Assembly: GCA_964634885.1 (NCBI GenBank)
Contig: CAZWLN010000009.1
Coordinates: 17,735-81,734, forward strand
DNA: 64,000 nt
Direction: 5' to 3'
Source of the DNA: an uncultured Hyphomicrobiales bacterium
Lineage (GTDB): Bacteria > Bacteroidota > Ignavibacteria > Kapaibacteriales > UBA2268
Positions 9,926 to 51,090 of the stretch are shown here, in pieces. The notes beneath the pieces are model-generated. The model was given only the letters and a program-made list of their open reading frames with translations, did not search any database and was not told where the DNA came from. Every line of letters begins with the position of its first letter. Position 1 is the first letter of the stretch. The translations under genes and the position numbers were made by a program.

Positions 9926-9960
9926 GCCCGGCAGAATCAATGTTCTGCCGGGCTTTTTTT
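9926..9960 (+). terminator. Rho-independent terminator hairpin plus T-run
   Basis: gcccggcagaa-tcaatg-ttctgccgggc followed by ttttttt, directly after the 9216-9893 ORF and abutting the island direct repeat. Confidence 0.6.
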
Positions 9961-10004
9961 CGAGCCAACAGCCGGACTTGAACCGGCGACCTGCTCATTA
10001 CGAA
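9961..10004 (-). repeat. Left-end direct repeat (attR-like): 44-nt copy of the 3' half of tRNA-Thr, identical to 51016-51059
   Basis: cgagccaacagccggacttgaaccggcgacctgctcattacgaa found at both 9961-10004 and 51016-51059; only the right copy is a complete tRNA. Confidence 0.8.
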
Positions 10005-10069: not shown

Positions 10070-10087
10070 GGGACGGAAATGGGACGG
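10070..10087 (+). promoter_or_regulatory. 18-bp motif GGGACGGAAATGGGACGG (two GGGACGG heptamers 11 bp apart), copy 1 of 2; candidate integrase arm-type site
   Basis: Exact 18-mer also at 50873-50890, same orientation, each just inside an island end. Confidence 0.45.
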
Positions 10088-10392
10088 TTGATGCTGAGTT
10101 ATTGAAAACAACATTTGATATCAATCATTGAAAATATTTTCAAGTAAGTGAAACCTATATCTGGCAATGAGGTTATATAGTGTAATGGAAATTGAAAATA
10201 ATGAATAATAAACAAATTTATAATATTTTGTTTGTATATTTATAAAATATTTTGTATTATATTATTGGCTTGAAAATTGAAGAATAATATTTTCAATCCA
10301 TTAATATTTTAAGTAGATAGCATAGAGATTGATTGTAAAACTGTGCTATACTTTAAGTTATGAAGTACCATTAATATGTATTTGGAAAGCCA

Positions 10393-27075: not shown

Positions 27076-29214
27076 GTGATTATGATCAGAAAAATTCTAT
27101 TAATATCTTTCTTAGTAATGTTTTATTATCCTGCTAACTGTACAGCCATTGATACCAGTAAGGTCAATACCTCTGTTGGAGTAGATTATTACTATTCTCT
27201 TATTTCCAATAACTCTAGTTTTAGTAAGCTGCCTGGGATAAAGAATTGTTGTCCTGTTTTTGATAAAGGTACTGGAAGCAGCTATAAACTGGGAATATTC
27301 TTTGATGTACCTTTTGGGTTGGGTTTTTTCTTAAAAACAAACATCTTCTTTTCAAATACATCATCCAGACTGACAAAAAATGAAAACGTTTTTGTTGCTC
27401 TTCAAGATGAGACGGTTTTGGGTAATTTTGAACATATAATTGAAAACAGGATAAAAATGATAAGCATTCAACCAACAGTTACTTATCAGCTTTTTAGAAA
27501 TTTTAAAACTCATATAGGTTTATGGCTGGGTTATGTATATCATAATTCTTTTATTCAATATGAGAGAATCACAGAACCTGAGAATTCAGGTACATTCATT
27601 AACAAAGACGGCACGAATTCTTATAGTCGCATTCGCAACCTTCAAAAAGGTATTATGCCGAACTATAATAAAGTTCTTTTTGGCTTGTCTGGCGGAGTCG
27701 CTTACCATATGAATCTTGACAAAAATAATAGATTCATGTTAATACCTGAAATTGATTTCTCCCTATTACTTACAAATTTGGTTCATAATCTCGACTGGAA
27801 ATACTCTGAATTGTCATTTGGATTAGGATTTTCCTATAATTTCATTCATTATGATGTCATACCGGAATACAATAAATCCCAAGAAAGTATAATTAGAATT
27901 GATACCATAATAATCGTCGATGACAAAGCCGACTCGCTAATGTTCTGTGAAGGTAAAACACGTTTATTATTGGATACTCAAAAAGTTGCTTCTGTTTACC
28001 TAATCAAAGAATTATTGTTAAGAGTTGATACTCTTTACAAACCTTCAGTGAAAAGCAGAATTGATGTTACTATTGCTTCGGATACCACATTGAAAAACAA
28101 AATCGAACAAATTGTTATAAAAGAGTATCTATCCTTAAAAGGCTATCCTTTTCTGAATTGTATCTTTTTTGAGCGAAATTGCTCTGAACTTCCATCGAGA
28201 TACATTATTCCAAGCAAAGAAGAAATACGGAACTCACATGAATATTCTATAGTGAAATATGAAACTCTGCCTATATATTATAATATTCTGAAGATCATTG
28301 GCTATCGAATGAGTACAAACACTAATTCAACACTTACTATCAATGGGATTGTATCAAACTATGAATATGGGACCGTAGCCAGGGAAAGATGTTTGACGAT
28401 TAAGAGATATCTTGAGAATGTTTTTAATATTGACTCAAACAGAATACATATCATTGCTTCAAAAAGTAAATACTTGCAGGATAATGTTTCCCGGGAGAAA
28501 CAAGAAGAAGACCAAAGAGTTGAAATGACCTCAAATGATAGTGAAGTTTTTGCCCCAATTTTACAAATAGATACTCTGTTCAAAATTGAACCTATGAAGG
28601 TGTACGCCTTTCCCAAAATTACAAATTATCAAGATGTTTCATATTATACATTTGATATTGTGCTTGGCAATGATACTGTTATTACTGATACAATTATCAG
28701 GTTACAAAGTTATTATGAAATCGAACTTTCTAAGTTGAATTTCAAAAAGTATAAAAAGAATCTTACCATTTGTCTATCTTGCTATAATTCAGACAAAGAA
28801 GTTATTACCTCTATTAAAGAAACTGTTCCTTTAGAGTATAAAACAATAAACACTCCACTGTCTTCTGACGAAGGGATCGATTCATACGATAGCTATTGCC
28901 TGATTCTGTTCGATCGTGGTAAAACTGATATTACAGGCCAAAACATTCAAAATGCCGAGATTATCAAATCGAGAATCAGTTCCAATTCTGAAGTTACTAT
29001 TATTGGTTATACCGATAGTATTGGAGAACCCGAATTGAACAAACAATTAGCACTTGAACGTGCTACAAACTTTGCTCGTTTATTGAATTTGGAATCGGCT
29101 TACATCATTGATTCCAAATCGAATATGCCCTTGTATGACAATAGCCTTCCTGAGGGTAGATTATACAGCAGAACAGTTGAAGTAAGAATTAAAAATACAT
29201 TGCCACCCAAATAA
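27076..29214 (+). CDS. OmpA-family outer-membrane protein (N-terminal beta-barrel-like region, C-terminal OmpA/peptidoglycan-binding domain), 712 aa; paralog of 46632-48770
   Basis: Signal peptide; NCCPVFDKGTGSSYKLGIFFD N-terminal block shared with the paralog; C-terminal GYTDSIGEPELNKQLALERA...LPEGRLYSRTVEVRI (OmpA-like TD..G...N..LS..RA). Confidence 0.65.
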   Translation: MIMIRKILLISFLVMFYYPANCTAIDTSKVNTSVGVDYYYSLISNNSSFSKLPGIKNCCPVFDKGTGSSYKLGIFFDVPFGLGFFLKTNIFFSNTSSRLTKNENVFVALQDETVLGNFEHIIENRIKMISIQPTVTYQLFRNFKTHIGLWLGYVYHNSFIQYERITEPENSGTFINKDGTNSYSRIRNLQKGIMPNYNKVLFGLSGGVAYHMNLDKNNRFMLIPEIDFSLLLTNLVHNLDWKYSELSFGLGFSYNFIHYDVIPEYNKSQESIIRIDTIIIVDDKADSLMFCEGKTRLLLDTQKVASVYLIKELLLRVDTLYKPSVKSRIDVTIASDTTLKNKIEQIVIKEYLSLKGYPFLNCIFFERNCSELPSRYIIPSKEEIRNSHEYSIVKYETLPIYYNILKIIGYRMSTNTNSTLTINGIVSNYEYGTVARERCLTIKRYLENVFNIDSNRIHIIASKSKYLQDNVSREKQEEDQRVEMTSNDSEVFAPILQIDTLFKIEPMKVYAFPKITNYQDVSYYTFDIVLGNDTVITDTIIRLQSYYEIELSKLNFKKYKKNLTICLSCYNSDKEVITSIKETVPLEYKTINTPLSSDEGIDSYDSYCLILFDRGKTDITGQNIQNAEIIKSRISSNSEVTIIGYTDSIGEPELNKQLALERATNFARLLNLESAYIIDSKSNMPLYDNSLPEGRLYSRTVEVRIKNTLPPK

Positions 29215-29232
29215 CATATAGCAGCCATTGGC

Positions 29233-30780
29233 TCATCCTTTCTTCTTTTTCTCTCTGAAAGCTCTTTGTTTTTCTGTCCCGGGTGACTGTTTCAACAACC
29301 TGTCAACTTCTGCCATGTTTCCATTCGAAAGTCCTCTGGCTTTCAACCTGATCATTTCGATATATTCATCCAGGGCAACCGACAACGGAAGTTCCGGCAA
29401 TGTTGTCTCCGTATCTTCTTCTTTGAGTATGTCTGTAATAAACCGTTCTGGTAAGTCATGCAGGTGAATAATACCTGTACTGAAACGCCGGAATACTCTT
29501 TTTATCCACTTCTCTAACTCCCTTATATTCCCAGGCCAATCATAATCCATAAGCTTTTCGGTCACACTTTTGTCCAGGATTATCGGCGAAGAAAGAAAAA
29601 ATTGCTTATAATATAATTGGATGAAGTAATCGATTAGTAAAGGGATGTCCTGTCTATGCTCCCGCAATGGTGGTAACAATACGACTTCATCGAACCGGTC
29701 TTTCAGATCGGGGGCAAACAGGGTAGAATCATTGACATTCTTATTGGTGGCGGCTATGATTCTGGTTCCAACTTTCGTTATCTCTGCCGAGCCAAGACTG
29801 CGCACCTCCCCGTCGTTTAAAAACCTTAGCAATGTGTTCTGGCCCTCTTTGGGCATATTACCAATCTCGTCGAGGAACAGGAACCTGTTTTCGGCTTGCT
29901 TTATTATCCCGGGACTTTCCTTATCTGCTCCCGTAAATGCTCCTTTTTTGTACCCGAACAATTCTGCTGCTATCAACTCTCTGGGCAGGGTACCGCAATC
30001 TAGAGTCAACAGGTTGACATCCGATTCGTTCCTGTACAATCTCCAGATTGAATTGGCTACTACTTGTTTGCCGGTACCTCTTTCACCTAATATCAAAACA
30101 GATGTGTTATTGTTAATGTCGTAGAGTATTTGTTCCTTGATCTCTCTAACATTGTCGGATTGGCCGATTAATTCAGGAACCAATAAGTCTAATTCGTGAG
30201 ATGCCAGTTTCTGTACCAGAGCCTTGTTCTCTCTGGTTACCAATGTAAGTTGCCGTTTAATAGCTGAAGGGGCTTCGATGTGAGGAAAGTCATCGATGTT
30301 GAGGTTGACCTCTTTGATATTCGACCTTTTGTCTATGGCAAACCTTGACTCGAATGACTGGATTAACCTGGCATTGGTGATTATACCTGCCTGGCTCAGC
30401 AATATCCAGCAGGCTGTCATTGTGGGAGTGCCCGATGTAATATTGATAATCTTCTCTGCCTGTAAAAAACCGGGGCTGGTATTCAATTCCTGGACTTTGT
30501 CCAATAAAAACGGATAGACAAGATCGTAGTCAATCGGGTTGGGCAGGCTGACAGAGACAATACAAACATTGACTGCCGGGTTTATTGCTTCCATTACAGA
30601 CATATTCTCCAAAGCAATGGAATGATAGCTGATTAGCTCGGACTTCTTGTCGGGAGTAACAAACAGGTAGACCTGTTCAATCTTCTGGGAATACTTCTGA
30701 AATATCGAGAGAACTGCTCCGTATTCGTTTGAGCCGCGCTCAATTTTATCATGATTGCCAATGAAAGAGAGATATTTCAT
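29233..30780 (-). CDS. RtcR-like sigma-54-dependent transcriptional activator: N-terminal CARF-like sensor domain plus AAA+ sigma-54 interaction domain
   Basis: AAA+ bEBP motifs (GERGTGK, ELFGYKKGAFTGA, GAFEGSAEIT-like, GNIRELE); N-terminal region aligns by eye to E. coli RtcR CARF domain (NITSGTPTMTACWILLSQAG...ARLIQS vs HITTGTHVAQICWFLLAEA...ARLIQS). Confidence 0.75.
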   Translation of the reverse strand: MKYLSFIGNHDKIERGSNEYGAVLSIFQKYSQKIEQVYLFVTPDKKSELISYHSIALENMSVMEAINPAVNVCIVSVSLPNPIDYDLVYPFLLDKVQELNTSPGFLQAEKIINITSGTPTMTACWILLSQAGIITNARLIQSFESRFAIDKRSNIKEVNLNIDDFPHIEAPSAIKRQLTLVTRENKALVQKLASHELDLLVPELIGQSDNVREIKEQILYDINNNTSVLILGERGTGKQVVANSIWRLYRNESDVNLLTLDCGTLPRELIAAELFGYKKGAFTGADKESPGIIKQAENRFLFLDEIGNMPKEGQNTLLRFLNDGEVRSLGSAEITKVGTRIIAATNKNVNDSTLFAPDLKDRFDEVVLLPPLREHRQDIPLLIDYFIQLYYKQFFLSSPIILDKSVTEKLMDYDWPGNIRELEKWIKRVFRRFSTGIIHLHDLPERFITDILKEEDTETTLPELPLSVALDEYIEMIRLKARGLSNGNMAEVDRLLKQSPGTEKQRAFREKKKKG

Positions 30781-31784
30781 TTTTTATTATTTATTGGTTG
30801 ATATTTACCTGAATTAATCTTATTAGCAAGTGCTTCATTCATTATTGTCTGAATTTTTTCAAATTTCTCATAAATTATTTTTATACTATCTTGACTATTA
30901 TTCGGAATAAATGTATCTAATCCTCTATTCAACTCAGCCCCTAGTATGTTGTTTAATGTTATATACCTTTCATGTGTAAAAAATGAACTCTTGTTACAAA
31001 AGATTAATTCTACTTTTAAATTTGAAATGTTTTCAATAATAGTACTTATCTTACTATATCTATCATCAGTAGTTTCATTATTATTTCTTGATACCTGCAG
31101 GCTTGCTAATCTTGTGATAAGTGTAAATTTAACTTTATTATTTACCAATGAAATTGCATCAGCAAACTGTTTTAGACCATTTTGATAGTTATCATTCCAT
31201 TTCTCAAAAACATTTCTATCAATCAACACTACTTCAGGGTAAGATATTTGTAATTTGAGAACATTTGACCAAAAAGATATGATTTTATTCATGCCATCGT
31301 CGACAGAACTCGGTTGGGAACAAGAATAACTTGTTTCTAAGCATTTATGATATAGTTCAGAATCATCATATTTATTCATATTTATTGTATTTATACCAGG
31401 TATATTTAAAGAACTATCGAATGTTACAATATAATGTGGTAAATCATTATTTTTTTGATTAATAGCTTTGACGTTATTAATAACCGAACATTTCTTACAA
31501 TCACTACAATCACAAACTGAATCTATTATCTCTTGTTTATCCCAGAAAAATTTTTTCCAAAGTATCTCCAATTTTTTCTTTGGCTCATCTTCGAGAACAT
31601 CCTTTAAATCTAAATATTTTTTAGATAAAGTATTATACGCTCCTTCTTCTATGCAATCAATCCAAACAGTTTGCTTAGTAATGGTGCTAAAAAATGAATT
31701 AACTCTTTGCAATAATAAGTCGGCTTCATCCTCAGTAGAAGGTATATCTAGAATACTAGAATCGATTGTAATGGTTGAAATCAT
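30777..31784 (-). CDS. Hypothetical protein (Cys-cluster CDCSDCKKC), partner gene immediately downstream of the ATPase
   Basis: 335-aa ORF overlapping stops/starts with both neighbours; no confident domain call. Confidence 0.5.
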   Translation of the reverse strand: MISTITIDSSILDIPSTEDEADLLLQRVNSFFSTITKQTVWIDCIEEGAYNTLSKKYLDLKDVLEDEPKKKLEILWKKFFWDKQEIIDSVCDCSDCKKCSVINNVKAINQKNNDLPHYIVTFDSSLNIPGINTINMNKYDDSELYHKCLETSYSCSQPSSVDDGMNKIISFWSNVLKLQISYPEVVLIDRNVFEKWNDNYQNGLKQFADAISLVNNKVKFTLITRLASLQVSRNNNETTDDRYSKISTIIENISNLKVELIFCNKSSFFTHERYITLNNILGAELNRGLDTFIPNNSQDSIKIIYEKFEKIQTIMNEALANKINSGKYQPINNKK

Positions 31785-33427
31785 TAAATCATTTCCTCAT
31801 AACGTTCATCAAAAAAACCGTTAGGCCATTTTGAAGAGAATCTACCTCTTTCATCAATATTGATTTTTGTACAAACTAGCCCATTAGTACTTGATTCAAA
31901 AAAGTAAATTGAAAGGAACTTCTGTTCAATTTGTAGCTTAATTTCTTCATTTTTGCCTTTTATTGTTTCCTTAATACGTCTTAGCAGCCTCAACATCAAG
32001 TGCTCGCTATGGGTTTCAATGAGAAATCTTAATTCTGGTTTTGTATTGATTTGTTCTATAAATAGATCGCCCAAATCTACTTGCATTTTCGGATGAGTGT
32101 GTAGTTCCGGTTGTTCGATAGCTAAAATTGAATTGTTCTGATAAATGGCAGCTACAATAACTGGTATTATCTGTGAAATTCCAACACCAATGTCTATAGG
32201 TTTCAGTTCAATAGTGTTTTCTATGTCTTTTATAAATAAGTCAGTCAAGACATCGGAATTCATCAGAAAACTTTTCAAATCATCTTCATCGACAACTATA
32301 CCCTGAATGATTTTCCTGTGTATATCAGAATCTGTATTCAGAAGTCTATAATCCTTTTTGGCAATCTGATAACCAGTGTCGAATTTTTGCAGCCAACTGT
32401 TTACTTTGTCGAATAGGTCCACATCTCCGTTTCTTAATACTTCCCATGCTAATAGTCCATTTGACCAGTTGACATTACCAGAATTGTGTTTTGAAAAATG
32501 ATGCCTATCCAGAATTTCTCTTAGTGGACCAACATAATTCATTTTACTCAATTCATTGGTCAGATATTCACCAAGACCAACGAAAATTATGTTTAGTATT
32601 TGATGAAATATCTTTTTTTGTTTATTAATATTTTCAAACTCAGCTTTATGATAGTCAGTGAGCTCGTTTACCGGTTTTCTGAATATCAAATCATCAAATG
32701 ACAGAGCTTTTCCCCATATAGGTACTGCTGTCTCTTGCATTAAAACTTCGATTTCATTGAAAACTACATCGCCATTCTCTCCATATACATTGGAATTTAT
32801 AATACAGTCATAAATTTGCAGGAGACGTTGCGATGGATATGAATTGCCTTGCTCATTAGCGTTCATATTATCATTGTCAAGAAATACATTATGATGCAAA
32901 TTCAATTTTTCAACTAATAGGTTTTCCCTCCCACCAGGATTATTCTCTATGATTGAGCCAAAGTGTTCATTATTAAACCCTACATGGTAATTTACTCTGG
33001 GCTTTTCCGTACCATAATCCCAAAAGACTTCCAATTCAATATAAGCCGAATCGATGCTTTCTCTTAAATGTGAGATCAGATTTTCCGGGTCTTCATTGTC
33101 AAGTTCTTGTTCAAAATAAAAATCAAAATAGGGTAACTGCGATGATTTGACATCAAAATCTATTCTTATAATAATTCTATTCTGCAAAATCTGATTATTA
33201 ACAACATTTCGAAAACCTCCGTAATCAATGATATTTCCTCCTAATTCTATCCTGTCAGCCGCGCAGTTCTTATTGAGGAGTATCTCCCTTGCATAATGCA
33301 TTGCCTGGAACACTGTACTCTTACCGGCGCTGTTGGCGCCAAAAAGCAGGGTAATCGGCTTCAGGTCGATTGTTACACCCGGGCTGCCGATACCCTTGAA
33401 GTTCTCGATATAGATTTTTGTTATCAT
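31784..33427 (-). CDS. ABC-type / OLD-family-like ATPase (AAA_15/AAA_21-like) of the kind found in Septu, PARIS, AbiEii and RloA systems
   Basis: Walker A LLFGANSAGKST at N-terminus, distant signature-like GISQIIP, Walker B ILAIEQPELHTHP, H-loop ETHSEHL near C-terminus; no nuclease domain within the protein. Confidence 0.75.
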   Translation of the reverse strand: MITKIYIENFKGIGSPGVTIDLKPITLLFGANSAGKSTVFQAMHYAREILLNKNCAADRIELGGNIIDYGGFRNVVNNQILQNRIIIRIDFDVKSSQLPYFDFYFEQELDNEDPENLISHLRESIDSAYIELEVFWDYGTEKPRVNYHVGFNNEHFGSIIENNPGGRENLLVEKLNLHHNVFLDNDNMNANEQGNSYPSQRLLQIYDCIINSNVYGENGDVVFNEIEVLMQETAVPIWGKALSFDDLIFRKPVNELTDYHKAEFENINKQKKIFHQILNIIFVGLGEYLTNELSKMNYVGPLREILDRHHFSKHNSGNVNWSNGLLAWEVLRNGDVDLFDKVNSWLQKFDTGYQIAKKDYRLLNTDSDIHRKIIQGIVVDEDDLKSFLMNSDVLTDLFIKDIENTIELKPIDIGVGISQIIPVIVAAIYQNNSILAIEQPELHTHPKMQVDLGDLFIEQINTKPELRFLIETHSEHLMLRLLRRIKETIKGKNEEIKLQIEQKFLSIYFFESSTNGLVCTKINIDERGRFSSKWPNGFFDERYEEMI

Positions 33428-33438
33428 GGCTTGATTAT

Positions 33439-33924
33439 TTAGTTAGTGAATAATTTGTTGAAATCCTTTATAAGCATTAGTACAAAAAATACCAATATAC
33501 TTCCAAATAATGTAATTATCTGCCATTTCAATAACTTGTATGTCCTTCTGCTGCATCTTTTTGAAATATTCCTGAATTTCTTGAAATTGTGCTCTTTGTA
33601 TCTCCGGTATTTCCATAAAGTAATTTTTGCGGTTATCCGAAAGTCTTTCAGCCGGTTGGTAACGCAGCAGATGCCAATAATTATTGAAGCCAATATAATA
33701 GATATGCCCAATAGGTAAACTATCGATTCGATAGTATTAAGGTTCAATGAGCTATCGTTCAGGACGCTCAATTCATAGCCGAGAATACCTATTGCAAAAG
33801 TCAGGAACAAATTGATTGTAAACGACAATTGTTTGATGCGGTAGTCCTGCCACCTGGTAAAGGACTCTTTTTTACTCTTTGTTTCTTCCACTGTTAACTT
33901 CTCTTCATTAGTTGATTGATTCAC
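33439..33924 (-). CDS. Small membrane protein (3 predicted TM helices) embedded in the defense array
   Basis: 161-aa ORF with three hydrophobic stretches; overlaps hsdS stop by 4 nt. Confidence 0.5.
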   Translation of the reverse strand: MNQSTNEEKLTVEETKSKKESFTRWQDYRIKQLSFTINLFLTFAIGILGYELSVLNDSSLNLNTIESIVYLLGISIILASIIIGICCVTNRLKDFRITAKITLWKYRRYKEHNFKKFRNISKRCSRRTYKLLKWQIITLFGSILVFFVLMLIKDFNKLFTN

Positions 33925-35075
33925 AGCTCCCCTCTGAAAGCTCTTTGCATCAGTGAATTGAAAAGGTTGTCGCTCTCGGTTAACTGTGCTTGTAGTTTTG
34001 CTTTTAGTTCTTCGATCTTTGTTACAATATCAGCAAATTTGGTTTGTAAAGTAATTGGAGGATAATTTATTGGCCATATTTTAACAATACTAGTATTAAC
34101 TACTCCGTGGGCTGACCCTACCGAATAGCCATAAAGACTACTTTTCCCAAAAGTTAAATTCATATAGAAAGCTATAAATAAAGATTGGAATTTAGTATCA
34201 GAACCAACTACAATAATATTAGCACAATTTGCACCGTCTAGTTCATATGGTACTACTGCGACCATACCCCTATTTACTCCAACTCTTGATATTAAAATAT
34301 CATTAGCATGGATTATAGAATTTTTTAATTTATTATGAAAATCTGTTGATATATAATGTAAATCTTGATAAGTGATTTTCATAGGTCTTATATTCTGAGT
34401 TCTAAGAAATGGAATACCATCCTGTCTATAACCATCAGTTGTTGGTCCAACATGCCCCACAACAATTCTATTAGTCAATTCACCGAGGTTTCTCACTTCC
34501 CAGCCCTTCGGGTTAGTCACCGGGTCTCCAAACATATCGAGAAAGACAGAACGGAGGTATTCATCGCACAATTTCAAGCTCTCACGTAGCTTCTGCCTTA
34601 TTTCGTCCGCTTTGTCAAGAATGGCGGCTATGCGGATCTGGTCCTCGAGAGAGGGGAGTAGAAGTTCCAAATTCTTAAGGTCATCTTGAGTTATCGCATC
34701 AAATGTTGAACCTCTACCACTAGAAGACAATTTAGACTCAATACTTCTAAAAAATCGAAATATAAAATTAAAGTCAACACCTTCTTTTACTCGTATTGCA
34801 CTTAATCCTCTCCCAATACATGCTTTTTGGTTACATATATTGGTTGGGCCAACTGGAGCTCTTACAGAAATAAGTATATCATTTGGTAATGCTATTTTTA
34901 AAGGGATAGAGCACCATTGTCTAATGTTTGGATAAATATAACCAAAATCAGACTTGCCTTGAAAAAAAGGTAATCCTATACAATCATTGTTATATGTTGA
35001 AGACGGTGGCGATTGACCAGCAATTATATCACAAATTTCTTTTAATTTTACTATTTTCATACTTAATTTCTTCAA
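33921..35075 (-). CDS. hsdS: Type I restriction-modification specificity subunit
   Basis: 384-aa protein with two target-recognition-domain-like halves separated by conserved coiled-coil spacers; position downstream of hsdM; typical HsdS blocks (GIPFLRTQNI..., LPSLEDQIRIA). Confidence 0.75.
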   Translation of the reverse strand: MKKLSMKIVKLKEICDIIAGQSPPSSTYNNDCIGLPFFQGKSDFGYIYPNIRQWCSIPLKIALPNDILISVRAPVGPTNICNQKACIGRGLSAIRVKEGVDFNFIFRFFRSIESKLSSSGRGSTFDAITQDDLKNLELLLPSLEDQIRIAAILDKADEIRQKLRESLKLCDEYLRSVFLDMFGDPVTNPKGWEVRNLGELTNRIVVGHVGPTTDGYRQDGIPFLRTQNIRPMKITYQDLHYISTDFHNKLKNSIIHANDILISRVGVNRGMVAVVPYELDGANCANIIVVGSDTKFQSLFIAFYMNLTFGKSSLYGYSVGSAHGVVNTSIVKIWPINYPPITLQTKFADIVTKIEELKAKLQAQLTESDNLFNSLMQRAFRGEL

Positions 35076-35833
35076 TTCAATAAATTAGTTTGACCATCTT
35101 CCAACATTGGAATATCCGGGATAGAAGCTCCTGCTTTACCTTTCATAATTTCAACAAGATATGCAATCCTTTTATTACTCATATTCCTATTATCAAAGAA
35201 TGGAGCAAGTATCAACAATGATTTCTTAGTATCCAGCTCAATTTGTTGATATTCAAAGCAATCTTCTCTTTGAAAATTTTCTTTTTGAGTAACAAACAAC
35301 TCTCTATAATCATTCCAGTGTCCAATGCCAAAACATATGATAAAAGTTGGTTTGTGTTGATTAATATACTGTAAAACTTTTTGCTTTCTTGTTTTCATAA
35401 AGTCCTTGTAGTAGTATTCCTCAGTCATTTCTAATTCTTTTAAAATTTCTGGTGACAACATATCAGTATTCTTATTTCTGCCAATTGGATATAAATTAAT
35501 TTGGAAATTAGAACCCTTTTCAAAAAATAAATATTTATTTATGTATTCTCTTGGTTTTATTTTAATGTTATTAAATGATGTAATAGTTTTTGCCATAATC
35601 GTATAAACACTTGTAAATTTACCACTAAAGCCTTTTTTATTCTTATTCTCCCTAAGTTCTGCCAAATCACTCTCATACCAATTTTCTCTCATTTCCCAGT
35701 CATAAGATTCGGAAATTTTACCAATCTTATCTATTTCGGGTACTTTTGCCTCCTCAATACCAATAAACCAATAATCACTCTCAGGATTACCCATTCCAAT
35801 ATAATTGAGTAAGTTATTACACTTGTCGTTCAC
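35072..35833 (-). CDS. Hypothetical protein inserted between hsdM and hsdS
   Basis: 253-aa ORF overlapping both neighbours by 1-4 nt; no recognisable motifs. Confidence 0.5.
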   Translation of the reverse strand: MNDKCNNLLNYIGMGNPESDYWFIGIEEAKVPEIDKIGKISESYDWEMRENWYESDLAELRENKNKKGFSGKFTSVYTIMAKTITSFNNIKIKPREYINKYLFFEKGSNFQINLYPIGRNKNTDMLSPEILKELEMTEEYYYKDFMKTRKQKVLQYINQHKPTFIICFGIGHWNDYRELFVTQKENFQREDCFEYQQIELDTKKSLLILAPFFDNRNMSNKRIAYLVEIMKGKAGASIPDIPMLEDGQTNLLN

Positions 35834-37329
35834 TACAACATCTCCACTAATTCTTCAATATTAGAAATAATTTCATTTTCCAGTGTTTTCATTTTGCTGA
35901 TAATCACAGAAGGCGCCTCATACTCTTCTTCCTTGTGGACAATTTCCTTGTACTTGTTAATAGACAGGTCGAAATTGTTAGCAACTATTTCACTTTTGTC
36001 CACAGTAAAATGCTTTTGGGTTTTGTCGTTGTTTTCAACCTCGAACCTGTTGTTCCACTTGCCAATGCAGTCAGGTATGTCGCTGCCTTCGACCGGTTGG
36101 CGTTTGTCGTCCAGGGAAAAACCGTCATTGCCCAGGTCATAGAACCAAACTCTATTGGTCTCGCCACCCTTCGTAAGTATCAGAATGGCTGTCGAAACCC
36201 CTGCGTAGGGTTTGAAAACCCCTGCCGGAAGTTTGATAATACCTTCGAGCTGATTCTTCTCGACAATTAGTTTCCTCAGTTCAATATGAGCGTTGGAAGA
36301 CCCGAACAAAACACCGTCAGGCACTATTGTGGCGCATCTGCCCCCGAGTTTTAGCATTCTGAGCATCAGCACAATGAAGAGTAGTTCGGTTTTCTTTGTT
36401 TTTACCTTGCTCAACAGGTCTTCGGCAACATCTTCGAAGTCGAGACTGCCTTTGAAAGGTGGATTGGCTAAAATAGCGTCGAAATAGTTCCCGGACAATG
36501 AAGGTTGTTTGTCGGCAAATGACTGGCTTAACGTGTCCTGGTATATAATGCCCGGGGAGTCGATGCCGTGGAGCATCAGATTCATGGCGGCAATTCTTAA
36601 CATTGTAATGTCGAAATCGAAGCCGTGGAGCAATTCTTTTTGCACATGTTCTCTGTACTTTTCGAGCAAGTCTTCCGAATAGGAAATATGTCCGTCTTCA
36701 TGTGTATATTTTCCCTTTTCAGAAGTGTATTTTACTTTGATGAATTCTCGTGTTTGCATTAGAAAACCGGCAGTACCACAAGCAGGGTCGCCGATTCTTT
36801 CGTATGGTTTTGGGTCGATAACATTGACCATAAGGTCGATGATATGGCGGGGAGTACGGAACTGGCCGTTAATACCCGCTGTTGTAAGCTTACTTAGCAG
36901 GTATTCATACAAATCGCCCTTGGTGTCGCCTTCAGTCAAAGGCAATTTGTCGATCATCTCAACGGCAGAAGACAGCAGGCTTGGTTTCTGAATCAGCAAT
37001 TGAGCGTCTGAAAGATAGACAGAAAGCCCGTTGCCAATTTCTTTAAAATGGGGAAAAACTTTATCCCGAACCAATTTGAGCATATTTTCGGGTTCAAGAT
37101 GAATAAAATTCGACCAACGTAAATCTTGATTATCAGAATTAAATTTGCCTTCGTGTTTTAGTTTTAAACGCTGAGCTTTCTTTTCTTCACGAGTTTCATT
37201 GATATCGATCAGCCGTATAAACATTAGAAATGTTATTTGCTCGATTACCGTCAAAGGATTGGTAATTCCACCAGTCCAGAATTCTTCCCAAAGCTTGTCT
37301 ATTTTACTTTTCAATTCACTATTCATCAT
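35833..37329 (-). CDS. hsdM: Type I restriction-modification DNA methyltransferase subunit (N6-adenine)
   Basis: N-terminal HsdM_N-like region, [12 protein letters not shown], catalytic NPPF ([10 protein letters not shown]). Confidence 0.9.
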
Positions 37330-40300
37330 TTATTTTCCTATGCTATTAATTGTTAACCTATTGTCTTTGAGTATGGTAAAAATCTCTTCCACCATAGTTT
37401 CATTGTTGAAAATGCCTTCAACACCTTCAGTGTCCAAAGAAGTAAATGGCGATTCGTACAGTTTTTCAAGTTTAATACACCCATACATGCCGATATAGTT
37501 CTTAAGCATATTCAGAAAAGCTATTTGATTTCCTGATAGCTCTGGATGATTTGCTACAAAGCTCTCAAAATAAGAATTTACAGCTTCTGCTTCAAGACCA
37601 ATAATTCTTCGTATTGCCAAATCCAGGTACCCCGCGGTGTCGGGATAGAATTCATAAAGAATATTAATATCAACATTTGGATATTTTGTGAGAACAAGGG
37701 AAACAAGTGAGTTAAGCTCATCCTGAGTAACAAAGGCGCCTTTTTTAATCTTTTGTAAAACAACGCTTTCATTGAACATCTGACAGAGAGCTTTTTCCAC
37801 CCTTTCTTTATATTTAATCATTTCCATACCCGGCATTTTGGGTATGTATTCCTCATGTTTAACCTTATCGGGATTCTCTGTAATATCGATTGTTTTCGAT
37901 TCGCTTATTAGTGGTACTTCAGACTCTTTGAACTGCATCAATCCACGCAATTCTTTTCTGATTTCTTCCAGATTGTTAAATTGTATCGTATCCCAATATT
38001 CAGCACTCAATACTTTTTTAATTACATCAGATTTTGTTCTTACCTGGTATAAATTCCTTTGTAGTAATGAAACTTCATTTATGATATCATCTCTGAAACT
38101 CTCAAACAAATTTGTATTTAGAATGAATTCTGTTTGTGATTGAGTAAGAAGAATATCAAACTTTACTGCTTCAATATGGCCAGCGATATTAATCCACCTC
38201 ATCAATGGAGCTATTTCATTCTTTAAAATATTAATAGTAGACTGATCGAATCGTTCAATTACACCATCTTGCTTCATCAGGTTGACTTCTCTCCACCTAT
38301 CTTTGACGGCAATAGATTTCAACGAATCCAGTGTATTAATATCTTTTTTAATGAGATCGACAATATATTTGAATTCATCTTGTTGAAACTTTTCAAGTGC
38401 GGTTTCGGCAAGTTTAATTCTCTGCAAAAACAATCTCTGGGATAAAGACATTGAGTCACTCACTTCTGCCGGTTTACAATTCAGATCGAACCATTCAAAA
38501 TTGCCCCAGTGGTCGAAAATTCTGAATTTTGTTTTATCAACCCCAAGCCCTAATAAATTAGGGCATAGCCTTGTCCCTCTTCCAATCATCTGCCAGAATT
38601 TGACGTATGATTTGATGGGTTTTGCAAATACAAGATTGACGACTTCAGGAATATCAATCCCGGTATCGAGCATATCTACCGATATGGCTATGGACAGCAA
38701 ATTGTTATTGCCTTTACCTTTGAAATCATCAATTAATTGTTCTGCTCGTGGGTCATAGTTATCTATAACCTGACAAAATTTACCGCCATACTGAGGAAAC
38801 ATTTCATTGAACAGGCTTTGCAATTGAAGAGCGTGTTTATGGCTCCGTGCGAAAATTATTGTTTTACCCGGGAGACTATCGGTCGCATCTTTAATTCCTT
38901 TCTCCATCAGATTTCTTATAATCTCACGGTTTGTATCTTTGTTGTATATAAATTTGTCTATATCATTAGAAGTATAATCGAATTCTTCAGCATTGGCAAC
39001 CTGGTCTTCGAGTTCTTTTTTTTGCTCGATGGTCAAATTGGCGTACTTTATACCTTCTCTTAAAAATTCAGTGGTATGATTAAACACTTCAAATGGCACC
39101 AAATATCCTTCTTTGACAGCCGTTTCATAATCGTAATTTGCAGTGGGGTCTTGATTGTCGCAATTAAACATAGAAAAAGTATTTCTGGCAATCAGGTCGA
39201 CAGGAGTAGCAGTTAACCCAATTTGATAGGAATCGAAGTAATCGAAAATATCCTTATAAACATTATAAATACTTCTGTGAGATTCATCGGCAATAATTAA
39301 ATCGAAGAAACCAACATCAAAAGTATCATAATACTTCAACATGGCTGGGTAGGTCGATAAATAAATTCTTTTATCTCTATTTTTATAGGTTCTGCTATTT
39401 ACAGTTGTCAGCGGAGTTGAAGGGATAAAATCGGTGAAAGCATTCTTGGCTTGTTTCCTCAATTCCCTTCTGTCGCATAGAAATAGAATTCTCTTAACCC
39501 AGTTCCCTTTCAATAGAGTGTCGCAAAGTGAAACGGCGACTCTTGTCTTACCAGTACCTGTGGCTTGAACAATAAGCGATTTTCTATTTTTCTGAGCGAA
39601 CTTTTCAATAACTCTTTTTTGTGCTTCCATTTGATAGAGCCTGTTAGCTATTGAAGGATTTGCTTCCAGATTGAGACTGTCTGTTCTGTTTTCCCTTTTA
39701 AAATGTAGGTATGTCAAACTATCTTTTGAATAAAACCCATGGATTTTTCTTGGTGGTTCGTTCTCTTTATCATTCCAAATATAAATATCAAACCCATTGG
39801 TATAAAATATTACAGGTCTTTTCCCAAACTTTCTTTCAATAGCATCAGCATAGAGTGTAGCTTGTTTTTTACCAATGTCAGGGTCTTTTGAGGTTTTTTT
39901 TGCTTCGATTACTGCCAATGGCTTGCCATCGTCACCAATGAGTACATAATCAACGAACCCTTTCCCAGTTTCCGTTGGCTGTCCGTCAACTTCATATTCT
40001 ATTTCAATATCGGAATTTTCCGATGAACCATCATTAAATGCCCACCCTGCAATAGAAAGTTGTTTGTCGATAAGGAATTGTCTTGTTTGCTCTTCATTCA
40101 GATCGAGTAAAACAGCAACTGATTTGCCTTTATTTTTAATTGTTTCGCTCTCAATATCGGTTAAAGGTGTTATACTGGCTTTTTCTTCCTTTTTATTTAA
40201 ATTTTGAATTAGTTGTTCAATGATTAATTCTTTTTTATTTAACTCTGCCTGCAATTTTGGCTTATTAATATCAGCCATTGATTTTGTTTTATCAGGCAAA

Positions 40301-40704
40301 ATGAAACTATTTATATTCTGGGGCTCGGTCTGATAAAATACTATCATTAGCCACTTAGAAATAATATATGCAATATTAAGAAGCTTTTTGGCTTCTGTTT
40401 CATTTACCGATTCACCATGAGCCGCTTTATTTCCGGACAATCTCAGAAGGTGAAGATTTGATATAATAGAACTCTGAATTTGTTCATTTTTGTTTAGAGC
40501 CTCTAATAAGGAGAAAAGATTTTTTTCTTCTAAATACTCCAATTTCAAATTATTGTATAGAACCCTTACATACTTTTCTGCAAAAGTTCTTAATTTAATA
40601 GCAGTTACAGATGAATCCAGAAGCAGATACTGTTCAGCCAATTCTCCCAGAGCTGATAATTCTGGGAGTTTTTCTTTTAAAAAAATAAAATTGTTGTCTG
40701 CCAT
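37330..40704 (-). CDS. hsdR: Type I restriction enzyme R subunit with N-terminal DUF4145-like domain
   Basis: Helicase motifs [11 protein letters not shown] (Walker A) and IIADESHRS (DEAH); 1124 aa; immediately upstream of hsdM. Confidence 0.85.
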
Positions 40705-40738: not shown

Positions 40739-40754
40739 TACAATTGGTATGCCA
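40739..40754 (-). promoter_or_regulatory. Weak sigma-54-like -24/-12 element TGGCAT-N5-TTGTA about 35 bp upstream of hsdR start (imperfect -12: GT instead of GC)
   Basis: Reverse complement of 40739-40754 reads TGGCATACCAATTGTA; spacing to hsdR ATG compatible with a promoter. Confidence 0.25.
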
Positions 40755-41401
40755 GAAAAACATACTCTGGATTTTATATAATTGTTATATTATCATAACC
40801 ATTACGATATCAATCATATACCTGCAAATTACAATTTATTTTTACATTTTTTTAAAATATTCTTTCAAGTAACGTTCGATACTATTCACAGTAACAAACG
40901 TTACCAGTCGATGCAAAAATACTAATATAAAATTATTCATATTCAAAAAAAAGAAGATGCTTAACTAGCATTACCAGTCCAATAACTAATATCCCCTTAT
41001 GGTGAAAATTGGACTTCCATCATAATGAAATATTGTTGATTACCATATCAAAATTGACCGTAACAATACAGTTATATTGATGAAGTATTCTCCCCCCCAG
41101 AATATTGGACACAAAGTATAGTTATTTTATGTCCAAGTTTCAAATTCGAGTGTAGCAGCATAAATATTATTACTACACTTGTTATCAGTATGTTGTTAAT
41201 AATACTATATCCAATAGTAATGTAGAGCTTATCGATGCTCTTTCCGCCGTCTTATAAAAAATAGGAAACGAAAAGAGTATCATCAAATCAATACATATTA
41301 ACCATCGGTCATATTCATACTCATGTTGTCGGTTCCGTATTAAGCCTGGTACCGCTTTAAGTAATCATTTATTTATATATCTTACCATACCATTGCTCAG
41401 G

Positions 41402-49701: not shown

Positions 49702-50769
49702 ATGGCAAGAAAGAAAAGGAGCCATACACCTGGCTCAATCTACAAGAAAAATAACAAACTTGTCATTGAATTGAAAGGCAAAAAGCTTTATACCGGCTTG
49801 AACGATACACCTGAAGGTAGAGAGAAAGCTAAATTGATGAAGGAACAAATGTATGAGCAATGGCTGATTAACAGAGGGACATTGCCGGATCATACGAAAG
49901 ATTTTATATCAGCAAAGGAAGCTTTCTTGGAATTTGTAAGTCATCTTGAGCGAAAACAACGGAGTCAGGCTACAATCAGAAATTACAAATTAGCTTTCAA
50001 GCTGATTTACAAAGAAGATTATCTAATAAACCAGAGAATAAACAATGAATACAGGATTGTGTTTGATATTCGGAGATTTGTTGACACTACAAATGTTGGA
50101 AATGTCAGCATAAACAGTTATCTCCGGTGCATTAGGTCTTACCTAAACTATTGTTATACTCAGGGATATATCAACAAAATAGATGTAATGAATTTGTTTG
50201 GGAAACCAGAAAAAGAAAAGAAACCAATTGCTTACAACGATAGAGATTTGGAAAAGATTCTCGAATACTTTTACGAAACTGATGAAGAATTTGCTTTATG
50301 GATTAGCTTTATGAGATTGACCGGATCTCGAAGTAAAGAATCAATCACCCTTACTTGGGACCAAGTGGATATTGAAAAGAGGCAAATACTGATCTACAAC
50401 AAAATCAATACAGAAAAATCTGAGATGATAATAGTATCAGATAGAGTTTTGAATATCCTCGAAAGGTTATTAGTTCTCTCAACCCAAAGGCCGAAAAATA
50501 AACATAAACTATTTCGTTGGACTTATAATGGTTTGTCCCGGCTTACCCGCAGATTCCATGATGCAGAAAAACTATTGGGAATAGAACCGACCAATGGATG
50601 TTTCCATAAGCTCAGGAAAGCTTTTGCAACCGAAATAATTGAAAATGACCTGTCGATATGGGAAGTCAAAGAACTTATGCGCCACGCTAATATCAATACT
50701 ACTCTGAAGTATTACAAAGAGAAGAACACTTTGAAACTTGTGGATGCCTTGAATAGAATCCACCATTGA
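49702..50769 (+). CDS. Tyrosine-type site-specific recombinase (phage-type integrase)
   Basis: C-terminal catalytic region with HKLRKAFAT (HxxR) and LMRHANINTTLKYY (catalytic Tyr); located about 250 bp from tRNA-Thr and transcribed toward it. Confidence 0.9.
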   Translation: MARKKRSHTPGSIYKKNNKLVIELKGKKLYTGLNDTPEGREKAKLMKEQMYEQWLINRGTLPDHTKDFISAKEAFLEFVSHLERKQRSQATIRNYKLAFKLIYKEDYLINQRINNEYRIVFDIRRFVDTTNVGNVSINSYLRCIRSYLNYCYTQGYINKIDVMNLFGKPEKEKKPIAYNDRDLEKILEYFYETDEEFALWISFMRLTGSRSKESITLTWDQVDIEKRQILIYNKINTEKSEMIIVSDRVLNILERLLVLSTQRPKNKHKLFRWTYNGLSRLTRRFHDAEKLLGIEPTNGCFHKLRKAFATEIIENDLSIWEVKELMRHANINTTLKYYKEKNTLKLVDALNRIHH

Positions 50770-50890: not shown

Positions 50891-51015
50891 AAAAATATTT
50901 TAAATGACAAAAAATAGCTTTAAATGGCAAAATTCTCTGTTCCCCTTCCAACGACATTGAAAACGGGAACACAGCAATTATGCTTGAATTGCAAGGAGTT
51001 ACCTCTTTTGCCTTT

Positions 51016-51059
51016 CGAGCCAACAGCCGGACTTGAACCGGCGACCTGCTCATTACGAA
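51016..51059 (-). repeat. Right-end direct repeat (attL-like) overlapping the 3' half of the intact tRNA-Thr
   Basis: Identical 44 nt to 9961-10004. Confidence 0.8.
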
Positions 51060-51090
51060 TGAGCTGCTCTACCAACTGAGCTATGTTGGC
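51018..51090 (-). tRNA. tRNA-Thr (anticodon CGU), 73 nt, CCA not encoded
   Basis: Manual cloverleaf: acceptor GCCAACA/UGUUGGC, D-arm GCUC-AGUUGGUA-GAGC, anticodon arm GCUCA-UUCGUAA-UGAGC, T-arm GCCGG-UUCAAGU-CCGGC, discriminator U. Confidence 0.9.

Follow-up and report, generated by a model that had tools for sequence, protein, structure and literature searches.

A candidate inducible operon combining a CARF sigma-54 activator, type I restriction-modification genes and a Menshen-like ATPase-effector pair on a predicted tRNA-Thr genomic island

The stretch of DNA analyzed here, referred to throughout as the window (64,000 nt of contig CAZWLN010000009.1), carries on its minus strand, from position 40704 to 29233, an array of eight tightly packed genes. 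In gene order, these are hsdR, hsdM, a gene for a 253-aa orphan protein, hsdS, a gene for a 161-aa protein, an ABC ATPase gene, the gene for its 335-aa partner and a sigma-54 activator gene (Table 1). All eight open reading frames (ORFs) were present at the expected coordinates and lengths, in agreement with an earlier note on this DNA, made from the sequence alone, which had listed eight minus-strand genes. The successive junctions measure 0, -1, -4, -4, +11, -1 and -4 nt, and a scan of the array found no terminator-like hairpin on its minus strand; gaps of 0-11 nt or short overlaps, together with the lack of an internal hairpin, bear out the proposal of a single transcription unit. Profile searches with Pfam, PADLOC and NCBIfam agreed with the gene-by-gene annotation and with the defense reading given in the earlier note, and the PADLOC check that it had suggested returned REase_I, MTase_I, Specificity_I, NsnB and RtcR_PspF2 matches among the array proteins. 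Its description of two unknown genes interrupting a type I restriction-modification (R-M) cassette holds for the gene of the 253-aa protein, and fails for that of the 161-aa protein, which is located between hsdS and the ATPase gene. Local GC content reaches 0.46 in hsdM (36001-37000) and 0.42 in the activator gene (29001-30000), versus ∼0.30-0.37 elsewhere in the array; these are two of its more conserved genes.

Table 1. Coordinates of the array, its upstream elements and other features of the window.
Feature	Position	Strand	Basis or remark
Two palindromes GTAAC-N4-GTTAC, candidate activator-binding (upstream activating sequence, UAS) sites	40869..40904	.	pattern scan
Candidate sigma-54-type promoter TGGCATACCAATTGTA (GG-N10-GT)	40739..40754	-	ends 35 nt upstream of hsdR ATG
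hsdR, type I restriction subunit, 1124 aa, N-terminal DUF4145	37330..40704	-	Pfam, PADLOC, NCBIfam
hsdM, N6-adenine methyltransferase, 498 aa	35833..37329	-	N6_Mtase 6e-62, HsdM_N, PADLOC MTase_I 1.5e-174
253-aa orphan, embedded between hsdM and hsdS	35072..35833	-	UDG-superfamily-like fold, tentative
hsdS, specificity subunit, 384 aa, two target-recognition domains	33921..35075	-	Methylase_S, two stretches; PADLOC Specificity_I 1.3e-86
161-aa protein, three hydrophobic segments, very basic loop	33439..33924	-	hydropathy
NsnB-like ABC ATPase, C-terminal DUF3696 helix, 547 aa	31784..33427	-	AAA_15, AAA_21, DUF3696 (Pfam)
335-aa putative effector, N-terminal PIN-like domain with Cys4 cluster, C-terminal PLD/MIT_C-like domain	30777..31784	-	predicted model
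RtcR/PspF-like activator (CARF, sigma-54 AAA+, divergent Fis-type HTH), 515 aa	29233..30780	-	Pfam, PADLOC, NCBIfam
47-bp direct repeat, two copies	9958-10004; 51013-51059		perfect repeat
tRNA-Thr(CGT)	51017-51090	-	3' part forms the repeat
Integrase gene	49702-50769	+	
Sigma-54-like site TGGGACGGTTGATGCT (GG-N10-GC)	10080-10095	+	just within island boundary
RHS/PKD/lipase-domain protein, 2155 aa	10393-16860		
Gene group downstream of the RHS gene	16857-20006	+	
Gene of similar size to the tandem paralogues, preceding them	16857-17876		
Tandem paralogues	17880-18986; 18990-20006		43% identical
WD40-repeat protein, 1750 aa	41402-46654	-	inside island
WD40-repeat protein, 696 aa	6948-9038	+	outside island

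The array was placed in a wider context through an alignment of homologues of its ATPase, of which 4539 were found. From species-representative genomes the alignment retrieved 80 loci that span many phyla, out of at least 344 relatives; with a few loci fetched earlier, the set came to 82 non-redundant loci, in which ORFs were called and labelled using the window proteins as queries. The order activator, hsdR, hsdM, hsdS, ATPase and ∼300-aa partner was observed in 27 of the 82, while another 10 carried the activator, ATPase and partner without R-M genes. In 23 loci, several of them cut at the flank, the R-M genes, ATPase and partner occurred with no activator match upstream, and the remaining loci were either truncated by a contig end or contained the pair alone. 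These counts indicate that the core, i.e., the CARF sigma-54 activator, type I R-M system, DUF3696 ABC ATPase and ∼300-aa partner, is a conserved operon, present in at least 37 of the 82 loci across many phyla. The earlier note had not recognized this combination, pieces of which were reported in 2014 and 2024. The median identities of the window HsdM and HsdR to their counterparts in the related loci are 58% and 46%, respectively, and a single R-M lineage therefore appears to travel with the module. The HsdR of the orthologous locus L086 is 62% identical to that of the window. The closest relatives of the window ATPase and partner (L003, L004, L068 and P0004) exhibit the window order of ATPase, partner and CARF activator; in P0004 this trio adjoins BREX rather than an R-M system.

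The set also contains other arrangements. In two alphaproteobacterial loci (L012:3002-3883 and L037:2982-3887) a WYL-domain regulator of ∼295 aa replaces the activator upstream of hsdR. Genes of similar size occupy this position in L023, L030, L031, L044, L052, L069 and L081 (the WYL domain was tested in L012 and L037 only), and in loci of either kind the region before hsdR showed no sigma-54 promoter. In L088:5197-7754 and L089:7132-9689 the ATPase and 300-aa partner appear without R-M genes or activator, beside a UvrD/PD-(D/E)XK protein, and the L088 pair also adjoins a CBASS operon (SAVED, CD-NTase, ThiF and JAB).

The activator combines, in one protein, a CARF domain, an AAA+ domain with an intact GAFTGA motif and a C-terminal helix-turn-helix (HTH), the last visible by alignment (GN...) only. 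The N-terminus matches RtcR and Csm6-CARF, the central part matches Sigma54_activat (1e-44), and the Walker A and B motifs are also intact and, like the CARF motif SGTPxM, align with those of family members. In PADLOC, the protein was recognized by RtcR_PspF2 (1e-78) and RtcR_PspF1 (4e-68); the canonical activators of the related loci are RtcR_PspF2 proteins of CARF-AAA-HTH organization, with E values of ∼1e-198. Identification as the RtcR regulator of RNA repair was rejected, the score against NF038308 being 204 bits versus a cut-off of 650 and no rtcA or rtcB being found among its annotated neighbors; neither RtcA nor RtcB was found among the 28 large window ORFs scanned. In four loci (L057, L067, L071 and L076) the activator homologues lack a GAFTGA-type motif, and no strong sigma-54 site precedes hsdR. 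These activators may have switched to sigma-70-type activation.

Upstream of hsdR, the candidate promoter TGGCATACCAATTGTA ranks 4th of ∼128,000 positions when scored with a position weight matrix (PWM) derived from the 31 promoters found in related operons. The window and L086 each contain a single TGGCATAC-N3-TTG element, at matching positions, and the L086 counterpart, TGGCATACAACTTGAG, is located 26 nt before the hsdR ATG of that locus. In the relatives, near-consensus sigma-54 promoters (TGGCACG-N4-TTGCW) were found at 31 sites, versus ∼1.6 expected from their overall density. They precede hsdR, or the ATPase gene where R-M genes are absent, and their distances from the called start range from -24 to 131 nt. 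The clearest example is L005, in which the activator gene and hsdR are 40 nt apart and a 12/12 sigma-54 match takes up this gap. Farther upstream in the window, ∼120-145 bp before the -24 element, are two GTAAC-N4-GTTAC palindromes, one exact (40891-40904) and one with a single mismatch (40869-40882), spaced 22 bp center to center; they are the sole two matches to the pattern in the window. The equivalent position in L086 carries GTAACTCTTGTTAC, the sole match in 11 kb, plus a degenerate second copy. Paired palindromes upstream of a promoter constitute the classic layout of sigma-54 activator-binding sites. Considered together, these elements make it probable that the window operon depends on the activator and on sigma-54. 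The operon would moreover be positively auto-regulated, because the activator is its last gene; in the canonical order, unlike that of the window, the activator gene sits upstream of the promoter.

Other candidate signals were also considered. A weak site at 33837-33852 is poor and lies within a coding region, and an internal promoter before the ATPase gene was unsupported, since L082 and the short contigs L003, L004 and L068 yielded no sigma-54 site. A sigma-70 consensus scan was uninformative for a Bacteroidota-like organism, and the 700-nt region upstream of hsdR contained no plausible small ORF.

The R-M genes encode a type I system, comprising HsdR with a nuclease domain and an SF2 motor, HsdM, and HsdS with two target-recognition domains. 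HsdR contains DUF4145, HSDR_N, ResIII and EcoEI_R_C domains (PADLOC REase_I, 4e-289), and HsdM displays the NPPF motif. The closest R-M family is EcoAI, although HsdR falls below the curated thresholds (restrict_EcoAI, 246 bits versus a cut-off of 550; PRK11448, 324 versus 729) and was not accepted as a member of the EcoAI (IB) equivalog. Residues 1-209 of HsdR, the DUF4145 region, match the N-terminus of the PADLOC candidate PDC-M16A (5e-35), which points to a shared accessory domain.

The ATPase matches PADLOC NsnB over nearly the full profile (1.2e-47, positions 1-337 of 345) and Pfam DUF3696 (1e-7), and matches AriA (1e-18), GajA, Old and PtuA more weakly. Additional matches, to HEC-03B and PDC-M55A, fall mainly in its C-terminal third. 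The invariants of the family are a Walker A motif GANSAGKS, a GxG signature motif and an E-Q pair at Walker B. In the Menshen system, NsnB likewise has a GxG signature motif, and the D-E pair of Walker B is replaced, by E-N (PMC12065111).

The 335-aa partner, which the earlier note had left uncharacterized, resolves to a putative effector of the Menshen NsnC type. Its predicted model has a predicted local distance difference test (pLDDT) score of 89, and the C-terminal domain contains a conserved Asp189 and His271-x-Arg273. The cluster of cysteines noticed earlier in this protein stands, with C44, C91, C93 and C99 invariant in 16 homologues. In comparison with PLD-family nucleases the model scored 9.2 for SauUSI, 8.8 for Nuc, 8.4 for NgoAVII, 8.0 for NucT and 7.2 for BfiI. 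In Menshen NsnC proteins with the PB-PLD1 effector, a PIN-like N-terminus precedes an MIT_C/PLD-like domain that carries an acidic residue and the motif H-[DE]-R (PMC12065111), and the top PDB neighbor of the 335-aa partner is the one reported there for PB-PLD1 NsnC. The modelled fold thus corresponds to the NsnC architecture, in which PIN-like and PLD/MIT_C-like domains form a predicted nuclease-type effector.

A word-indexed search with the 335-aa partner returned only the protein itself; a seven-sequence alignment of its family found no match in genome contigs and only two short contigs in the metagenome, and none of the partner proteins, from the window or the related loci, matched a PADLOC v2 model. 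The canonical partners of the related loci constitute one family, which is related over its full length to the 335-aa family, with the Asp and H-x-R residues aligned (hhalign probability 87%, E 4e-6). The 335-aa protein is a member of a rare subfamily with the Cys4 cluster. NsnA (ParB-DUF262 plus ParBDB), the sensor that defines Menshen and whose gene directly precedes that of NsnB, was also sought: Pfam detected no DUF262 in the eight array proteins, and a jackhmmer search that started from a GmrSD-type DUF262 protein gave no match in the window or the related loci. Assignment to Menshen proper was therefore rejected, despite the NsnB- and NsnC-like proteins. By analogy, the pair probably resembles NsnB/NsnC in action, yet it lies outside Menshen by definition, because NsnA is absent from the window and all of the related loci.

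Two genes of the array remain orphans, and neither matches a catalogued embedded-gene candidate among the PADLOC HEC/PDC models. The 253-aa protein has a single homologue and a sub-threshold DUF6942 match; searches of PDB sequences (to E 10), PHROGs and PADLOC returned no match. In its low-confidence model (pLDDT 54) the closest structural neighbors are the glycosylases MUG, TDG and UDG, which tentatively suggests a UDG-superfamily-like fold, a suggestion that derives solely from this model. Sequence similarity to glycosylases and recognizable glycosylase motifs were not found, and an hhalign comparison with an approximate E. coli MUG sequence was not significant. The same three neighbors call to mind Brig1 and Brig2, defense glycosylases of the UDG family (PMC11078745; 10.1101/2025.10.29.685425); a glycosylase active on modified phage DNA would be complementary to R-M. 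For the 161-aa protein, hydropathy agreed with the three transmembrane segments proposed earlier, and its basic loop contains 16 K/R in 43 residues. It gave no Pfam, NCBIfam or PHROGs match and no homologue in 89 related loci, and a PycTM identity was rejected (E 0.0023, with no stretch passing alone and the match prone to composition effects).

Related loci often carry variable genes, including those for PIN, REase-ARP and helicase proteins among others, between hsdR-hsdM and hsdS-ATPase, in accord with what Payne et al. describe as embedding (10.1101/2024.01.29.577857). In L086:7539-10134 and L068:652-1443, the slots that correspond to the 161-aa gene hold DUF2130, Schlafen/AlbA_2-HATPase_c_4 and REase-ARP nuclease genes. 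The embedded positions therefore seem to turn over fast, the orthologous locus having different genes in matching slots.

The array lies within a low-GC stretch of ∼41 kb that has a copy of a perfect 47-bp direct repeat at each end, equivalent to the 3' portion of tRNA-Thr, and that includes an integrase gene. On these grounds, the array is predicted to be cargo of a tRNA-integrated genomic island. An Rfam scan found only the tRNA. The host appears Bacteroidota-like, as three window proteins have type IX secretion system (T9SS) sorting tails, and the nearest relatives of several array proteins belong to a metagenome-assembled genome (MAG) of the 'Bacteroidetes/Chlorobi group', which is also the source of the orthologous locus. 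Neighbors of the array encode WD40, OmpA-like, SBBP and Ig-domain proteins, and further cargo of the island comprises an RHS toxin and several secreted proteins. The WD40-repeat protein inside the island is the direct upstream neighbor of the array, across the 700-nt gap. At the opposite side of the island, the sigma-54-like site TGGGACGGTTGATGCT ranks 6th in the PWM scan and is located ∼300 nt upstream of the RHS gene. In the gene group downstream of the latter, the first 60 residues of the tandem paralogues are virtually identical and begin with a signal-peptide-like start.

On balance, we favor an interpretation in which the array functions as one inducible anti-phage operon on the 41-kb tRNA-Thr island, a variant of the widespread operon family. 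The RtcR/PspF-type activator would sense, through its CARF domain, a nucleotide or RNA ligand derived from infection or damage, bind the two upstream palindromes and open the sigma-54 promoter. Transcription of all operon genes would then rise: those of the EcoAI/EcoEI-like type I R-M system, of the accessory proteins (one possibly glycosylase-folded, the other a small membrane protein) and of the Menshen-like module, in which the NsnB-like ABC ATPase would control the PIN-like/PLD-like nuclease effector. With the activator gene last in the operon, induction would reinforce itself. Confidence in the domain identities and family membership is high, that in sigma-54 control within the window is moderate, and that in the sensing and effector mechanism is low to moderate. 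The analysis itself established the gene content and domain identities, a predicted PIN+PLD fold for the effector, the conserved operon, the sigma-54 promoters of the relatives and the recurrence of the promoter-like and palindromic elements in L086; the dependence of the window operon on sigma-54, the type of ligand, the activity of the nuclease and what it cleaves, the feedback and the anti-phage role are what we infer.

Several points weigh against this interpretation. The dinucleotide at -12 is GT in the window and GA in L086, versus the canonical GC, such that a strict GG-N10-GC scan misses both sites. Only one orthologous upstream region, that of L086, was compared, and AT-rich intergenic DNA aligns easily; L082, where the activator is also downstream, has no convincing sigma-54 site. 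The C-terminal HTH has diverged beyond what Pfam detects, the Menshen sensor is missing, and a 64-kb window is too small to judge the presence of rpoN. Furthermore, a fully sigma-54-dependent hsdM would leave the host DNA unmethylated in the uninduced state, and constitutive internal promoters are therefore probably required; an activator encoded by the last gene would likewise need some basal expression. Finally, the operon family is known from genomes alone.

Some of these points would be accommodated if transcription started instead from a constitutive housekeeping promoter. Such promoters in Bacteroidota are of the TAnnTTTG type. The TGGCATAC element would then not be a sigma-54 site, and the activator would act elsewhere, for example on the candidate site upstream of the RHS gene, or post-transcriptionally through protein contacts of its CARF domain. 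The non-canonical -12 dinucleotides would fit this explanation, as would the continuous expression that R-M methylation needs; TA-nn-TTT-like strings (TATGTTTT, and TAATTTCT in L086) overlap the element when judged by eye against this consensus, and the CARF domain of RtcR is known to bind the RtcA and RtcB proteins (PMC9650030). We nevertheless regard it as unlikely. Experimentally supported Salmonella sigma-54 promoters have the same -12 sequences: the proven pspA promoter, TGGCACGCAAATTGTATT, has TTGT at -12, as does that of the window, and another has TTGA (PMC3844500). In addition, the paired palindromes are typical of activator-binding sites and unique in the window, and relatives have clear sigma-54 promoters at the equivalent position.

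An explanation that we rate as similarly improbable considers the locus a mere juxtaposition within a defense island, where the R-M system, the ATPase-effector pair and the activator are independent and the activator controls something else or only itself. The pair is indeed separable, since it occurs alone, without R-M or activator, in a defense island beside CBASS; the trio adjoins BREX without R-M, activator and pair lack R-M in 10 loci, and the embedded genes differ from locus to locus. Juxtaposition would not, however, account for the recurrence of one gene order, with a sigma-54 promoter right at the operon head, in 27 loci of many phyla, for HsdR and HsdM of one lineage, or for the close junctions and uninterrupted course of the array. 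Still less probable is that the pair guards the R-M system in the manner of PrrC or PARIS, being kept inactive until anti-restriction proteins of a phage disable or mimic the R-M target, with the activator setting only the level of expression. The position of the pair directly after hsdS in most loci, the similarity of the ATPase to AriA and other defense-system ABC ATPases, and the embedding logic, with the PrrC and PARIS precedents summarized in 10.1101/2024.01.29.577857, all accord with a guard. On the other hand, its occurrence without R-M makes the latter no obligatory partner, and Toprim or anticodon-nuclease domains are absent. Guarding would, in any case, be compatible with the inducible operon and does not exclude it.

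A more elaborate scheme, which we consider doubtful, combines the ATPase, PIN-PLD effector and CARF activator in an autonomous, self-amplifying circuit. The ATPase would detect a phage cue and free the effector, whose cleavage products, or RNA damage induced by the phage, would provide the CARF ligand; the activator would then drive its own operon through sigma-54, with escalation from DNA restriction to abortive infection. If this were true, the R-M arm of immunity would be induced and not constitutive, and the Cys4 PIN-like domain, together with the embedded glycosylase-fold and membrane proteins, would represent new types of effector or sensor.

Restriction-modification is usually treated as constitutive innate immunity. 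In the operon family, a CARF sensor appears to control a tightly closed sigma-54 promoter, downstream of which lie both type I R-M genes and a Menshen-like nuclease module. The family offers a tractable case for learning what RtcR-like CARF domains sense beyond RNA repair and whether bacterial defense is escalated transcriptionally. The two embedded orphan genes are candidates for new defense functions.

The RtcR-led superoperons are among the nearest known systems. Makarova et al. described RtcR/PspF-like CARF activators beside R-M genes in 2014 and predicted sigma-54-dependent activation of downstream defense genes in response to infection-derived ligands; their supplementary table lists, for Desulfobacterium autotrophicum, the order activator, hsdR, hsdM, hsdS and a pfam13304/pfam12476 (DUF3696) ATPase (PMC4012209). 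Bell et al. (2024) reported RtcR-led superoperons with type I R-M ahead of CoCoNuTs (PMC11090510). The window array shares with these an activator of CARF, NtrC-type AAA+ and HTH domains, co-oriented with type I R-M genes, and differs in that the activator is last rather than first and that McrBC-like and CnuH genes are lacking. A CoCoNuT assignment was rejected, as CnuB/CnuC (McrB/McrC-like) and CnuH are not among the neighbors of the array. Neither paper discusses the ATPase-PLD partner pair (the term DUF3696 does not occur in the CoCoNuT text), and none of the papers searched names or tests an operon of activator, sigma-54 promoter, hsdRMS, NsnB-like ATPase and PIN-PLD protein. The RtcR-RtcBA RNA repair regulon has an activator of the same architecture, and the CARF region of the window activator matches RtcR in Pfam.

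The pair itself is best compared with Menshen, which Li et al. (2025) reported adjoining BREX, R-M systems or methylase genes in 28% of cases (PMC12065111). It differs in the invariant Cys4 of the N-terminal domain of the partner and in the coupling of the module to a sigma-54 activator. PrrC, RloC and the HEC/PDC embedded genes are comparable as additional co-oriented genes located within hsdRMS or immediately behind it, and in pairs of an ABC ATPase and a nuclease-like protein, such as HEC-03 (ATPase and PIN), defense needs both genes (10.1101/2024.01.29.577857). Identity with PrrC or RloC was rejected for want of an anticodon-nuclease domain, and identity with PARIS on account of the limited AriA similarity and a PIN+PLD partner devoid of Toprim. 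The operon kind is thus already known from comparative genomics, and the earlier note overstated its novelty. The window operon is unusual in the 3' position of its activator gene, the absence of NsnA, the two embedded orphan genes, the rare Cys4 partner subfamily and the elements upstream of hsdR. To the known family it adds a compact, Bacteroidota-type version, with a candidate promoter and operators, a potentially auto-regulatory gene order and a rare Cys4 PIN-PLD putative effector.

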